Shown: positions 3,321 through 17,017, counted from the first letter of the stretch. The stretch is DNA of 64,000 bases from a virus (IMGVR_UViG_3300042557_000330:1-64000); one strand, 5' to 3'. Notes: a model not told the origin generated them from the letters alone. Translations and numbers: made by a program.

Positions 3321-6300
3321 ATGCCTTACAGTTTTACCTACTTCAAAGATGAAGTGAAAGAGTGGTTTCTTAACAATGTTCCAACCAGTAAAAGAATACT
3401 AGATGTGGGTCCAGGAATAGGAACCTATTCAGAGTTGTTGCGTTCATCAGGATATAGAATAGATGCTGTAGAAATCTATGAACCTTACATAGAGAAGTAT
3501 AATCTTAGAGAGAAGTATGACAATGTTTACGTAGGAAGTATTATTACATTTGATATTAGTGATTATGACTTCATCATTCTAGGAGATGTCTTAGAACATA
3601 TCCCTACAAACTATGCAAAAGAATTAATCAGAGATATTGTAAGTGCCAAGAAAGAATGTTTGGTAGCCATCCCATATGAAATGGAACAAGGAGAACATGA
3701 AGGTAACATTCATGAGACTCATTACCAACCAGACCTTACACATGAGATGATGGGTGAAAGATATCCTGATCTTAGTTGTATATACAGGAATGAATACTAT
3801 GGCTACTATATGCATTCACTCGTAAAAGAAGAAAAAATGTACGTATTATATGCAAACGCATCTTATTATGATGTTGTTTGTATGGCTGTAGAGAGTATTA
3901 ATAAAGTGAGTGATATTCCTGTGTTAGTATATATGCTAGATGATTATAGAGAGGTGCCTGGTGCATACACTGTATGGTGGAAGTGTGATGTTGAAGACTT
4001 ACCAAAAGAATCTTACATAGATAGAAACAAGAGTGATGTATACAAGTTGTTGATTCAAAGACCTCTTATAGTTAAGGATGCTCTCGAAAGATTTGCTAAG
4101 ACTATATGTTATGTAGATTCTGATTCCATAGCTACTAAGTATGTAGATAGAATATTCAACTACTATCCTACAAGTTCTGAGTTTCCATATTTCACAGAAG
4201 GTATATATGATTATCTATTGATCAATGGTAGAGGTATTGTAATTGGAAGAGAGAACTTACATAAGAGTCTTGAAGCTCCAGCGTGTGAATTGTTTGGTGT
4301 AGATCAATCTATCAGAGATAAGTATAGACAAACTGGTTATTTTGTAGCTGGTCAGAACACTATACCATTCTTAGATGAGTGGAGTTGGATGTGTAATCAC
4401 CCAGAGGTGTTAAAGAACCCACAATACTATGCTCCCTATCACGAAGAGACAATAGTTAATGTTCTGTTATGGAAACATAAGTTCTTAGATGGTCTTCCTT
4501 ATATATACACTAATGCTAGTCTTGATAAGTTTAATAAGATATATGAAGAAAACAATTGGGGTAAGTACATGGAATCATGGTTTAAGTTACCAGCCAGTGA
4601 AGATCAACTGTTCTTCTTACATGGAGAGAAAGATCCTGTAGCAATGTCTAAACTAATATCTAAAATGTCTAAACCTATGAGAATAATGTTCCTTGCTCCT
4701 CACCTGTCAACAGGTGGTATGCCTCAGTTTCTTCTTAAGAGAATACAGTTGTTGAAGCAGTTTAATATTGCAGACATCTGTGTAGTGGAGTATCAATGTC
4801 ATAGCTTAGACTTTGTTGTACAGAGAAACCAGATCATGGATCTTGTGCCTGTACACACATTATATGAAGACAAGATGGAACTTTTTACGGTTATAGACCA
4901 ATTTAAACCAGACATTATACATTTAGATGAGATGTCTGAGAGAATGGATAGAGCAATGATCTCTAAATTATATAACAACAACAGAACTTATAGAATAATA
5001 GAAACGTGTCATGATGTTTCTTTCAAACCAACTATTGAAAAATTATACACACCAGATGCATATGCATTCTGTACACCACATCACTTAGATACATTTAATG
5101 TATCTGGGTATAAAGAGGTTATACAGTTTCCTATTGATCCACAAATACCATCAGCTGCAGAAAAACTACAAGCTAAATTTGAGTTAGGAATGGATAGTGG
5201 TAAGAAACATGTGATTAATGTAGGACTATGGACTCAAGGAAAGAACCAAGGAGAAGGACTAGCACTAGCTAGAAAGCTTCCTAATGTAGAATTCCATTTC
5301 ATAGGTAACCAAGCAGGTAACTTCAAAGACTACTGGGAACCATTGATGAAAGATGTTCCAGATAATGTAACTATATGGGGAGAGAGAACAGATGTTGATG
5401 TGTTTATGAAAGCTGCAGATGCATTCTTATTCAATAGTGTAAATGAATGTAATCCATTAGTATTAAGAGAAGCCATAGGTTATGGCCTTCCTGTGTTAGC
5501 TAGAAACCTTCCTCAATATAAAGATATGTTTACACCGTATATAACAGATCTTGATCCATTCAAGATGAAGAATCAATTAGGTATGTTATTGAACACTGAG
5601 CAAGTGTATGACGTTCCTTATAACAATCAATCAGGTGATTTTGTAAGTGGTCACCAAAAACTATACAGCTACGCAATGTCTGTTACTCCATACAAAAACA
5701 ATGTAAATGATTATAATATAACACAACATTTCGTAGGACAACCATTCTTAGAGATAACTGGTACATCTCAAAGTGATTTTCGTATAGAGTTTTATGATGG
5801 TCCCACTTTAATATATCATGATAATTTAAAGTGTAACCATTGGGTAAAACTTGCTAGAGAGTATTATACACAGTGGAGAACCGTGGTGTATAAAGATGGT
5901 GTGAAGGTGTATGATAAACTTCTAAATCTAGAAGGTAAGAGAGTGTACATTGCTTTTGATAGTTCTTCTCTAGGAGATACTATAGCTTGGATGCCATATG
6001 TAGAAGAGTTTAGATGTGCACACCATTGTGAGGTGATTGTAAGTACATTCAAAAACTTCTTATTTGAAAAAGAATATCCAATGTTAGAGTTTGTTGAGCC
6101 AGGAACCAATGTAACTAATCTATATGCTATGTATAAGATTGGTTGGTTCTATAATGAGAATAAAGAACCTGTTCTTCCTAACACTATTCCTCTTCAGCAG
6201 ACAGCTACAAACATATTAGGTCTTCCTTATAAAGAAATTAAGCCAAGGATTGTAAACAGTAGAATACAGCTTCGAATGAGACAAGTTTCAATAGCTACTA

Positions 6301-17017: not shown

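Follow-up and report, generated by a model that had tools for sequence, protein, structure and literature searches.

Two enzyme modules adjoin a giant tail fibre gene of an uncultured lake phage and covary with different parts of the fibre

Described systems and the phage locus

The closest described systems are TibC-TibA and Aah-AIDA-I of E. coli (structures 4RAP and 4RB4), in which a soluble cytoplasmic enzyme is encoded beside a repetitive, Ser-rich surface protein. The only known substrates of the TibC family are proteins encoded next door. An uncultured lake phage shares the true family domain, the solubility of the enzyme, and the neighbouring Ser-rich gene. In contrast to the E. coli enzymes, its domain is phage-encoded and fused to a GT4 domain, with or without a GT-A-like and a methyltransferase domain. 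The known acceptors of TibC and Aah are beta-helical autotransporters, whereas the covarying partner here is a proline-free, collagen-like fibre tract.

To our knowledge, glycosylation of phage particles has been documented for actinobacteriophages only and by other enzyme families; the modified proteins there belong to the capsid and the tail tube, and the acceptors proposed here are fibre tracts. According to papers that cite the main study (Freeman et al. 2023, Cell Host Microbe 31:1216), virion proteins are taken to be the targets of the glycosyltransferase and methyltransferase genes of those phages. Compared with these systems, the present locus differs in its TibC and GT9 families, in its own supply of PAPS and its sulfation branch, and in its non-actinobacterial hosts.

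Thr-rich Gly-X-Y tracts with O-glycans occur in the Bacillus BclA exosporium filaments, in the fibrils of Mimivirus and the Megavirinae, and in the cuticle collagen of Riftia, where a triple helix poor in proline owes its stability to glycosylated Thr. By analogy, a Gly-Thr-Ser collagen without any proline might depend on its glycosyltransferase for the same reason. We know of no TibC-type enzyme associated with any of these collagens, of none among them that is a phage tail fibre, and of no sulfation in them. The glycosylated fibrils of the Megavirinae are the subject of PMC10117803.

The PAPS synthases (Sat/CysC and CysDN/CysC) resemble the sulfation genes of the phage in their two-step logic, in their nucleotidyltransferase-kinase fusions, and in the HxxH fold common with Sat. 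Unlike them, the phage nucleotidyltransferase comprises only 134 residues and is nearest to NMNAT and PPAT, the kinase lacks a lid, and the roles of both are predicted. The fibre resembles the UspA1/YadA adhesin heads through beta-roll homology, but it has no anchor or translocator and includes collagen-like tracts in the same protein. Some trimeric autotransporter adhesins are glycosylated in the cytoplasm. In the literature library searched, no study described such a phage system.

The window, a stretch of 64,000 nucleotides, was compared with hundreds of related viral contigs. Two enzyme sets adjoin the giant tail fibre gene, and the cassette is located between lysis genes (positions 1041-2809) and virion genes (from 17030 upwards). 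An earlier sequence-only reading had placed the enzyme genes next to a Ser/Thr-rich fibre between the structural and lysis modules, and every gene that it named was recovered at its position. The gene of the fusion enzyme is the sole plus-strand gene of the cassette region and is convergent on the rest of the cassette. All of the cassette enzymes are soluble, with neither a signal peptide nor a strong transmembrane segment, which places them in the same compartment as fibre synthesis. Additionally, the block from the fibre to the GT9-fold gene was found whole and syntenic in contigs of 217-373 kb.

Directly after the fibre, a 106-aa protein (orf106; 9832-10152, minus strand) is encoded, and its position ahead of the sulfotransferase is conserved; one possibility is that it acts as a fibre chaperone. 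A promoter and terminator scan gave counts not above those of shuffled sequences, and two hairpins at gene boundaries were singled out, both of them consensus matches only. The first (6745-6769) has T-runs on both strands and lies where the fusion gene and the GT9-like gene meet with their 3' ends, and the second, terminator-like and on the minus strand (9800-9823), separates the fibre/orf106 unit from the sulfation genes.

The nearest isolates, as judged by one large structural protein only, were Leptolyngbya phage Lbo-JY46 (34%) and Cellulophaga phages phi4:1 and phi17:2 (29%), and a gut record labelled csAssE reached 28% by the same protein. The gene order and an ORF of 4580 aa resemble those of crAss-like phages, and the phage is at most a candidate member of the Crassvirales. 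Contigs bearing the cassette were binned into Bacteroidota MAGs, which weakly suggests a Bacteroidota host. A search of this record and of four complete relatives gave no tyrosine integrase.

The fibre and the enzymes of the cassette

The fibre (10157-17017, minus strand) is 2286 aa long and contains 408 Ser and 326 Thr (734 Ser/Thr) as well as 473 Gly. Collagen-like Gly-Thr-Ser tracts with globular domains between them occupy residues 53-927 (14237-16861, minus strand). These tracts include 13 Gly-X-Y runs and 157 triplets in uninterrupted register, where position X is Thr in 100 and Ser in 43 triplets and position Y is Ser in 110. Nine stretches matched the collagen family PF01391 (182 bits), yet, unlike in classical collagens, Pro is absent at both X and Y. 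The tracts are followed by the 'beta-helix' of the sequence-only reading, a beta-roll of 15-residue repeats at residues ~985-2105 (10703-14065, minus strand), with 55 copies of the motif S-G-x-[YLRF]-S-T-I-G-G-G-x-S-N-T-A and ~4.4 Ser/Thr per unit. The beta-roll shows homology to the UspA1 adhesin head (3pr7, E=6.1e-22); judged by sequence, the fibre shares a domain with the YadA/UspA1 trimeric autotransporters and is not itself a member of that group.

At its end the fibre has a C-terminal domain at residues 2106-2286 (10157-10702 with the stop codon, minus strand), which is conserved in some related fibres and not in others. A PDB sequence search gave no significant match for the C-terminal 180 aa, nor for residues 295-475, which had been suggested to be C1q/BclA-like. 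Pfam identified the Collagen family only and no membrane anchor domain.

The fusion enzyme (3321-6761, plus strand) is read as 1146 aa from an ATG at 3321 or as 1154 aa from a TTG at 3297. Its N-terminal part is a class I SAM methyltransferase domain (3345-3671, plus strand; residues 17-125 of the 1154-aa reading), identified by Methyltransf_23 (E=9.3e-9) and also by Methyltransf_11. This domain is 32% identical to a methyltransferase of Mycobacterium phage Phrappuccino, the gene of which adjoins a glycosyltransferase. The middle domain (3867-4766, plus strand; residues 191-490 of the 1154-aa reading) is probably a GT-A-type glycosyltransferase, although this is a weak call. A YxDxD motif (Y82, D84, and D86) was invariant across 24 homologues, Glyco_transf_8 matched three of the 24 (E no better than 0.023), and GT8 was present in 20% of the members of look-alike clusters in the ESM Atlas. 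Beyond such faint hints of GT8 or GT77, searches of Pfam, PDB profiles, and the ESM Atlas gave nothing more. A GT4 domain follows (Glycos_transf_1; 4884-5546, plus strand), with matches to PF00534 (E=5e-10) at residues 626-749 and to PF13692 (E=3.4e-8).

The C-terminal domain of the fusion (5778-6752, plus strand; residues 828-1152) belongs to the TibC/Aah (BAHT) family. By its sequence it is a full member of TIGR04414 (hepto_Aah_TibC), with a score of 256.4 bits (258.3 in the genome search) against a curated equivalog cut-off of 200, and it aligned to TibC (4RAP) with E=1.7e-50. Asp894 of the LGD motif and Cys1105, 1108, 1124, and 1136 were at least 95% conserved among 66 non-redundant phage domains. 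The aspartate and the four metal-site cysteines align to their TibC counterparts, where Asp110, as counted from the alignment, is the residue changed to Ala in 4RB4. Searches for two genes of the ADP-heptose pathway, gmhA and rfaE domain I, found neither in this record or the four complete relatives; the donor would have to be supplied by the host, or it may be another sugar. The enzyme is modular among phages, with the forms methyltransferase-middle-GT4-TibC (~1150 aa), middle-GT4-TibC (~990 aa), GT4-TibC (~700 aa), and a TibC domain by itself. Microcystis phage Mel-JY01 and the huge phage LR756501 likewise have GT4 paired with TibC.

The second enzyme set lies on the strand of the fibre. The 292-aa product at 6754-7632 (minus strand) has a GT9-type glycosyltransferase fold, as its AlphaFold2 model (pLDDT 93.5) retrieved 3tov (E=4.7e-13), WaaF (1psw, 3.8e-11), then WaaC, and TibC (2.4e-7) in Foldseek. 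It had no Pfam match, scored 19 bits on TIGR02201 (E=4.8e-4; cut-off 170), and reached a best E of 2.7 in a PDB profile search. With agreement in fold and no supporting profile (PF01075 or NCBIfam), the protein is termed GT9-fold here and is at most a candidate member of GT9. In 48 of 52 dereplicated loci, its gene and the sulfotransferase gene are neighbours.

The 272-aa sulfotransferase (8945-9763, minus strand) is of the PAPS-dependent Sulfotransfer_3 type, with 80.5 bits on PF13469 (cut-off 27) and 60.6 bits on PF00685 (cut-off 22). The best PDB match was TPST1 (2.8e-7), aligned over both PAPS-binding motifs, namely the 5'-PSB PRxGS(T) and the 3'-PB RDxR...S. Residues P11, R12, G14, S15, R114, D115, R117, and S122 were invariant among 29 homologues. 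Distant homologues (~30%) were found in the cultured cyanophages S-SCSM1 and S-SKS1, where they lie away from fibres. A search of a collection of 50,697 phage records gave no cultured phage with the sulfotransferase/GT9/beta-roll module.

Between these two genes, four small proteins appear to be linked with PAPS supply. The first is a short APS-kinase-like P-loop kinase of 152-154 aa (8475-8939, minus strand), which scored 64.8 bits on PF01583 (cut-off 21.1) and E=1.8e-11 against APS kinases of the PDB. It includes the P-loop GQPGAGKT, the DGD motif (as DGDD), and SLVSPY. However, it covers only positions 4-108 of the 152 in the profile, lacks the lid (KGLYKKA...FTG) present in the kinases of two fusion proteins, P0071 and P0005, and falls below the NCBIfam equivalog cut-off (TIGR00455, 66 against 138.7 bits). 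At one locus (L136), a canonical CysC takes the place of the short kinase.

The second is the 134-aa HxGH nucleotidyltransferase (8087-8491, minus strand; PF01467, 33 bits), in which GRxQPxHxxH, GRGVGYD, and ISATxxR were invariant. Its structural neighbours were NMNAT (Z 10.1), PPAT (Z 9.6), and ATP sulfurylase (1v47, Z 7.5), its PDB profile matches were NMNAT and PPAT only, and it fell below the cut-off of the ATP sulfurylase family (PF01747, E=0.0094, 15.8 against 24.3 bits). Most of its best-scoring longer homologues were fusions to APS kinase, of which there were very many; in P0071, for example, the partner is a canonical CysC. The occurrence of the two genes was nested: 35 loci encoded both, eight the kinase alone, and one the nucleotidyltransferase alone, and the kinase was present in 35 of 36 nucleotidyltransferase loci. 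These fusions and this nestedness make the protein a candidate small NMNAT-like ATP sulfurylase.

Two other assignments of this protein were rejected. As an ADP-heptose enzyme (HldC), it should resemble rfaE domain II, to which NCBIfam gave no match; the structural score for HldC was Z 6.0, and the gene tracks APS kinase, not TibC. A PPAT and dephospho-CoA kinase pair would have analogous chemistry, but the kinase matches APS kinase, the fusion partner is a canonical CysC, and a sulfotransferase is always there.

The remaining two are the small predicted membrane protein DUF2061 (7634-7852, minus strand; PF09834, 69.7 bits) and the 77-aa orf77 (7854-8087, minus strand). DUF2061 was present in 30 of the 36 loci that encode the nucleotidyltransferase and is fused to a canonical APS kinase (CysC) in P0005. 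In other phages, orf77 is fused to DUF2061, with such 146-aa fusions in 13 loci.

Covariation of enzyme modules with fibre parts

Across dereplicated viral loci, a double dissociation of enzyme modules and fibre domains was observed, which is new here. Loci selected by TibC and devoid of a sulfotransferase carried the Gly-Thr-Ser tract in 29 of 31 cases and the beta-roll in none of the 31. Loci selected by the sulfotransferase, with a GT9-fold gene present and no TibC within 10-kb flanks, carried the beta-roll in 24 of 24 cases and the Gly-Thr-Ser tract in two of the 24. The phage described here has both fibre parts and both enzyme sets. Among sulfotransferase loci as a whole, the beta-roll was present in 41 of 44 (47 of 52). 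In the reverse test, 32 of 49 loci selected by the beta-roll contained a sulfotransferase, mostly 0.1-3 kb downstream. A further 13 of the 49 had neither a sulfotransferase nor a GT9-fold protein, which counts against self-modification.

Viral records chosen only by a (Gly-Thr-Ser)4 DNA repeat contained a TIGR04414 match in nine of 49 cases, and in three of the six records that were at least 80% complete. Hence about half of the near-complete records encode a Gly-Thr-Ser protein without TibC, which likewise speaks against self-modification. One phage family was examined separately by anchoring on a neighbouring gene of 1628 aa: 12 of its loci had both tract and TibC, 11 had neither, and none was discordant. 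The two states were interleaved on the family tree, with at least five supported changes, and all five independent pairs were concordant (p=0.06). The C-terminal 250 aa of 31 TibC/tract fibres formed 17 unrelated clusters, suggesting that TibC tracks the collagen tract and not the tip of the fibre.

The association persisted over differing gene orders, with the enzyme located upstream, downstream, or convergent. In other phage backgrounds, a collagen-like frame lies ~1.7 kb upstream of the GT4-TibC fusion gene in Mel-JY01, and LR756501 has a collagen-like ORF at a distance of ~3.6 kb from its TibC gene, the two being separated by a single GT4 gene. The pairing of GT4-TibC and Gly-Thr-Ser was also found on contigs of 150-370 kb. 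Since the enzyme genes adjoin the fibre segments, joint gain and loss may also reflect the transfer of a cassette.

The sequence-only reading had tied the cassette to Ser/Thr-rich fibres, and the co-occurrence test on viral loci was strongly positive in both directions. Its sulfation branch also held up as a coherent unit of PAPS supply and sulfotransferase, given the nested occurrence and the CysC fusions. Its proposal that TibC O-glycosylates beta-helix repeats stood with regard to the enzyme family and was corrected with regard to the pairing, as the partner of TibC was the collagen tract. The single multi-sugar, methylated, and sulfated glycan that it envisaged was not supported, as the sulfotransferase, the GT9-fold gene, and the beta-roll often occur without TibC. 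With TibC tracking collagen and the sulfotransferase tracking the GT9-fold gene and the beta-roll, the two modules appear separable and not parts of one assembly line.

Modification of the fibre and alternative explanations

The reading favoured here, with a probability of roughly 0.6, is that the phage modifies its own tail fibre through two separable modules that serve different parts of it. From the enzyme families and the covariation, we infer the acceptors, sugars, and order of steps as follows. The fibre would be decorated in the host cytoplasm. The TibC-type domain of the fusion enzyme would add the first sugar to Ser/Thr hydroxyls of the Gly-Thr-Ser tracts, the GT4 and GT-A-like domains would lengthen the glycan, and the methyltransferase domain would cap it. 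In the module co-directional with the fibre, the GT9-fold protein would glycosylate the beta-roll and the sulfotransferase would sulfate the resulting sugar, a direct sulfation of side chains being less likely. For the PAPS supply, APS would be formed out of ATP and sulfate by the nucleotidyltransferase and phosphorylated to PAPS by the short kinase, with a possible membrane-linked role of DUF2061 and orf77 in this pathway. Several observations speak against this reading: the known TibC/Aah acceptors are beta-helical and not collagen-like, gmhA and rfaE domain I were not found, the kinase has no lid, the nucleotidyltransferase is nearer to NMNAT and PPAT than to any ATP sulfurylase, and the independent-pair test comprised only five pairs. 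More tentatively, and at less than even odds, it is proposed that fibres are sulfated with such self-made PAPS, the first step being catalysed by a previously unrecognised NMNAT-like ATP sulfurylase of ~130 residues that is widely fused to CysC.

Alternatively, the target may be the host envelope and not the virion: the enzymes would alter the lipopolysaccharide core, O-antigen, or capsule and mask the receptor of the adjacent fibre, resulting in superinfection exclusion or in progeny that are not trapped on debris. Serotype-converting phages do alter their own receptor, and such accessory genes are often located beside tail-fibre genes. GT9 and GT4 are classical families of lipopolysaccharide and polysaccharide synthesis, and the clan of this sulfotransferase, which matched NoeE weakly, includes bacterial carbohydrate sulfotransferases. 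A shared receptor would lead the enzyme type to track the fibre type; however, TibC tracks a spacer tract over the 17 unrelated tips and not the receptor-binding tip. Moreover, the TibC family is protein-specific and all signature residues are kept, the cassette includes no flippase, polymerase, or lipid-carrier enzyme, and the lack of a tyrosine integrase in five genomes, four of them complete, together with the adjacent lysis cassette makes lysogenic conversion unlikely. Envelope remodelling is thus regarded as unlikely.

It is also conceivable, though somewhat less so, that the linkage is only physical, where recombination cassettes carry enzymes that act on another virion or host protein or on a small molecule. 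Each module is always only a few kb away from the fibre part that it tracks, such that one indel would remove both, and the long synteny of the fibre-to-GT9 block and the fibre-free surroundings of the cyanophage sulfotransferases fit this explanation. Against it, the association is bidirectional and crosses different gene orders. Hitch-hiking alone would also not split TibC with collagen from the sulfotransferase with the beta-roll, two domain types that are joined in one protein here.

The earlier pairing could still be right in that TibC heptosylates beta-helix-like Ser, as in AIDA-I and TibA, with the collagen served otherwise or left unmodified. TibC and Aah are known to modify Ser within beta-helical repeats (TIGR04414 'strand-loop-strand'), and the Ser/Thr density of the beta-roll would suit such an enzyme. 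The loci with TibC only contradict this pairing, and the beta-roll in all 24 sulfotransferase loci without TibC exists there independently of that enzyme, leaving it improbable. Lastly, hypermodification of phage DNA by the glycosyltransferases, methyltransferase, and sulfotransferase was rejected for want of a supporting gene: phages do have glycosyltransferases that act on DNA bases, but the cassette includes no base-hydroxymethylating or DNA methyltransferase family, its genes lie in the late structural/lysis region, and no nucleic-acid substrate is known for the TibC, GT9, or Sulfotransfer_3 family.

Phage genes of this kind are assigned to host metabolism in viromics papers (PMC8290583). 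The covariation predicts that each enzyme module modifies one defined part of the fibre and not the other. A mimicry of sulfated polysaccharides by the coat is speculation. If the fibre is self-modified, many environmental phages would possess a sugar-coated and partly sulfated receptor-binding organelle. This would matter for how such phages adsorb, how stable their particles are, how they adhere to polysaccharide matrices, and what 'auxiliary metabolic genes' means. Proline-free collagen would become a new kind of acceptor for TibC-type enzymes, and the small nucleotidyltransferase would add to the enzymes that activate sulfate and could serve the enzymatic supply of PAPS. If self-sulfation in particular holds true, no sulfated bacteriophage particle would precede this one, the sulfate-activating enzymes would extend to a third structural type, and the role of phage sulfotransferases would be explained.

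Gene order, fibre and phage affiliation

The viral record in IMG/VR is 73.9 kb long and rated 64% complete, and the window covers its first 64 kb. Nearly all genes in the window are encoded on the minus strand. Their order starts with a major head protein and continues with large virion proteins, among them an ORF of 4580 aa, then the 2286-aa fibre (10157-17017), the enzyme cassette, and holin- and endolysin-like genes. The fibre contains 13 Gly-X-Y runs composed almost entirely of Thr and Ser without proline, and these collagen-like runs are interspersed with globular domains. 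The next ~1100 residues form a beta-roll built of 15-residue repeats with homology to the head of the adhesin UspA1, followed by a C-terminal domain.

All of the genes named in the sequence-only reading were confirmed in the window. Its placement of the phage in Crassvirales could not be established, since comparison of one large structural protein identified Leptolyngbya phage Lbo-JY46 (34%) and the Cellulophaga phages phi4:1 and phi17:2 (29%) as the closest isolates. Six cassette-bearing contigs (L334, L335, L339, L345, L348, and L356) were also found in metagenome-assembled genomes, five of them in those of Bacteroidota; the genomes were labelled Sediminibacterium, Flavobacteriaceae, Bacteroidetes, Bacteroides, and, in one case, Eubacteriales. 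These contigs carry the sulfotransferase/GT9 core with some or all of the genes for PAPS synthesis, as well as a beta-roll fibre in most cases, and by their appearance they are probably mis-binned phage contigs. Their binning provides a weak hint of Bacteroidota hosts. On its own, the sulfotransferase (43-50% identical) was also present in genomes of Synechococcus, Verrucomicrobia, and Planctomycetes.

The fusion enzyme and the sulfation module

The plus-strand fusion gene (3321-6761, with its ATG at 3321) encodes a class I methyltransferase domain, a GT4 domain, and a C-terminal TibC domain. The last of these scored 256 bits against TIGR04414 (cut-off 200) and matched TibC with an E-value of 1.7e-50. 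The catalytic-site Asp, which is replaced by Ala in entry 4RB4, and all four metal-site Cys were retained in the TibC alignment, and these residues were at least 95% conserved among 66 non-redundant phage homologues. The stretch that links the methyltransferase domain to the GT4 domain has an invariant YxDxD motif and gave only faint GT8 signals, and the methyltransferase domain is 32% identical to one from actinobacteriophage virion-glycosylation systems. Of the ADP-heptose pathway, neither gmhA nor rfaE domain I turned up here or in four complete relatives.

The fusion gene converges on the GT9-like gene (6754-7632, minus strand), where the 3' ends overlap by 8 nt and a perfect hairpin of 10 bp (6745-6769), with a T-run on each strand, is located. 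A second hairpin (9800-9823) lies between orf106 (9832-10152), directly after the fibre gene, and the sulfotransferase gene (8945-9763). Both modules are made up of soluble proteins. The 292-aa product of the GT9-like gene had no Pfam match, and its high-confidence model was that of a GT9-type GT-B enzyme. The sulfotransferase is a clear member of PF13469 in which both PAPS-binding motifs are invariant. Its best solved relative was a tyrosylprotein sulfotransferase (E=2.8e-7), and its best NCBIfam match was a weak one to the carbohydrate sulfotransferase NoeE.

The GT9-fold gene adjoined the sulfotransferase in 48 of the 52 sulfotransferase loci left after dereplication. In other phages (L135, L137, L140, L141, L150, L153, L155, L156, and L158-L160), a stand-alone TibC-like ORF of ~302 aa (32-34% identical) was located directly beside the two genes, giving two GT9-fold enzymes per sulfation module in those phages.

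The PAPS genes were nested in their occurrence across the 52 loci: 35 carried both the nucleotidyltransferase and the kinase, eight the kinase alone, one the nucleotidyltransferase alone, and eight neither. Such a pattern is expected with hosts that supply PAPS, only APS, or neither. The short kinase (8475-8939, minus strand) has the P-loop, DGD, and SxxSP motifs of APS kinases, while it lacks the lid and scored under the equivalog cut-offs; in the viral locus L136, a canonical CysC (PF01583, 223 bits) occupied its slot. The 134-aa nucleotidyltransferase (8087-8491, minus strand) was closest in sequence and fold to NMNAT (Z 10.1) and PPAT (Z 9.6), with ATP sulfurylase sharing the fold at a greater distance (Z 7.5) and PF01747 under its cut-off, and membership in the Sat family was therefore ruled out. 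A search for its longer homologues returned 1906 proteins, and most of the best 120 were fusions with APS kinase (PF01467 and PF01583). Specifically, the protein P0071 joins this nucleotidyltransferase to a canonical lid-bearing CysC, and P0023 joins it to the short kinase. With these fusions and the nestedness, an ATP-sulfurylase-like role would be the simplest reading, and the NMNAT-like family is a candidate for a third structural class of ATP sulfurylases.

In other phages, orf77 and DUF2061 (7634-8087 on the minus strand of the window) form a single 146-aa protein, which was found in 13 loci (including L135, L136, L144, L146, L150, L155, and L158-L160). The protein P0005 combines DUF2061 with a canonical CysC, and DUF2061 therefore seems tied to sulfate activation, with sulfate uptake or membrane anchoring as possible roles.

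Co-occurrence of the enzymes with fibre parts

Five independent criteria were used to select viral loci spanning 10 kb on either side: presence of the TibC domain (162 relatives, of which 80 were kept), of the sulfotransferase (180 relatives, again with 80 kept), of the 1628-aa virion gene next to the fibre (49 loci), of a (Gly-Thr-Ser)4 repeat in the DNA (49 records), or of the beta-roll (172 relatives, 78 loci). After dereplication, a double dissociation was observed. Of the 31 TibC-selected loci without a sulfotransferase, 29 contained a Gly-Thr-Ser ORF and none a beta-roll, whereas all 24 sulfotransferase-selected loci without TibC contained a beta-roll and two of them a Gly-Thr-Ser ORF. 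Overall, 41 of 44 (47 of 52) sulfotransferase loci had a beta-roll, with a median separation of 1.2 kb. In the reverse tests, 32 of 49 beta-roll-selected loci had a sulfotransferase, accompanied in 31 of these by the GT9-fold gene, and a TIGR04414 match was found in nine of the 49 records picked only by the DNA repeat (three of the six that were at least 80% complete). Certain Gly-Thr-Ser proteins had no such enzymes nearby, and the same was true of certain beta-roll proteins.

The proposed co-occurrence with a Ser/Thr-rich fibre held in both directions. The sequence-only interpretation was partly supported: the link between modification enzymes and the fibre was upheld, while the pairing of TibC with beta-helical repeats was not, as TibC accompanied the collagen-like tract (29/31) rather than the beta-roll (0/31). 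Cassette transfer alone could be behind part of this pattern, as the enzyme genes neighbour the fibre parts they track.

Within the family anchored on the 1628-aa gene, the resolved loci included 12 with both a Gly-Thr-Ser fibre and TibC, 11 with neither, and no discordant case. The two states were interleaved on the family tree with at least five supported changes, and all five independent pairs were concordant (sign test, p=0.06). The relative nearest by the window's own gene (90% identical) had no fibre, TibC, or cassette, and its endolysin came directly next. The fibre gene was similarly absent at this position from the close relatives L165, L171, L173, L174, L184, L192, and L196 (at most 90% identity in the neighbouring virion gene). 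The lysis genes of such relatives come directly at the fibre position, so the entire block of fibre and enzyme genes is an optional insert.

The fusion tracks the collagen-like tract rather than the tip of the fibre: when the C-terminal 250 residues of 31 Gly-Thr-Ser fibres were clustered, they fell into 17 unrelated groups. A GT4-TibC pair beside a Gly-Thr-Ser ORF also recurred in other phage backgrounds, including contigs of 150-320 kb. For example, the cultured Microcystis phage Mel-JY01 (190 kb; L082, PP395634.1) has an unannotated collagen-like frame ~1.7 kb upstream of its fusion gene, which is annotated as 'methyltransferase FkbM'. This open frame (2-3049, plus strand) encodes 1016 aa with 40% Ser/Thr and 143 Gly-Ser/Thr-Ser/Thr triplets; it runs off the record start, and opposite-strand ORFs are annotated over the same repeat DNA. 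In the huge phage LR756501, ~3.6 kb separate a collagen-like ORF from the TibC gene, and a single GT4 gene lies in that interval. An association that spans 17 tip clusters and other backgrounds argues against an enzyme acting on the receptor that the tip recognises. Remodelling of the host envelope, the main rival to fibre modification, is also opposed by the protein specificity of the TibC family and by the absence of tyrosine integrases from this record and four complete relatives.

Some phages encode two beta-roll fibres (L372 and L405 on one contig, L393 and L408 on another), only one of which adjoins the sulfation module. Distant sulfotransferase homologues (~30%) were observed in the cultured cyanophages Synechococcus phage S-SCSM1 (L435) and S-SKS1 (L436), in replication-type or unannotated neighbourhoods with no fibre beside them. 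The fibre link is limited to one sulfotransferase subfamily.

Proposed fibre modification and known systems

Phage fibres are made and folded in the cytoplasm. In the proposed mechanism, the fusion enzyme would initiate an O-glycan on Thr and Ser residues in the proline-free collagen tracts, lengthen it, and add methyl groups to it. The adhesin-head-like beta-roll would be decorated by the GT9-fold enzyme together with the sulfotransferase, using phage-made PAPS. We infer these fibre acceptors from comparative genomics. Proline-poor triple helices can be stabilised by glycosylated Thr, as in the cuticle collagen of Riftia, and such stabilisation would explain the joint gain and loss of the tracts and the enzyme. 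Because the sulfotransferase is so tightly paired with the GT9-fold gene, a sulfated sugar is more likely than sulfated Tyr, Ser, or Thr.

Among the closest known systems, TibC-TibA and Aah-AIDA-I have the enzyme family in common with the fusion, but the carrier and the covarying, proposed acceptor differ here. Virion glycosylation in actinobacteriophages is alike in idea but involves other enzyme families, and BclA and giant-virus fibrils are glycosylated collagen-like surface proteins. A literature search found no papers that tie TibC-type enzymes or a sulfation pathway to phage fibres, and one paper calls the role of phage sulfotransferases unclear outright. Both BAHT-catalysed O-glycosylation of proteins and the glycosylation of phage virions are known kinds of modification, and the sulfation branch would be new if proven.
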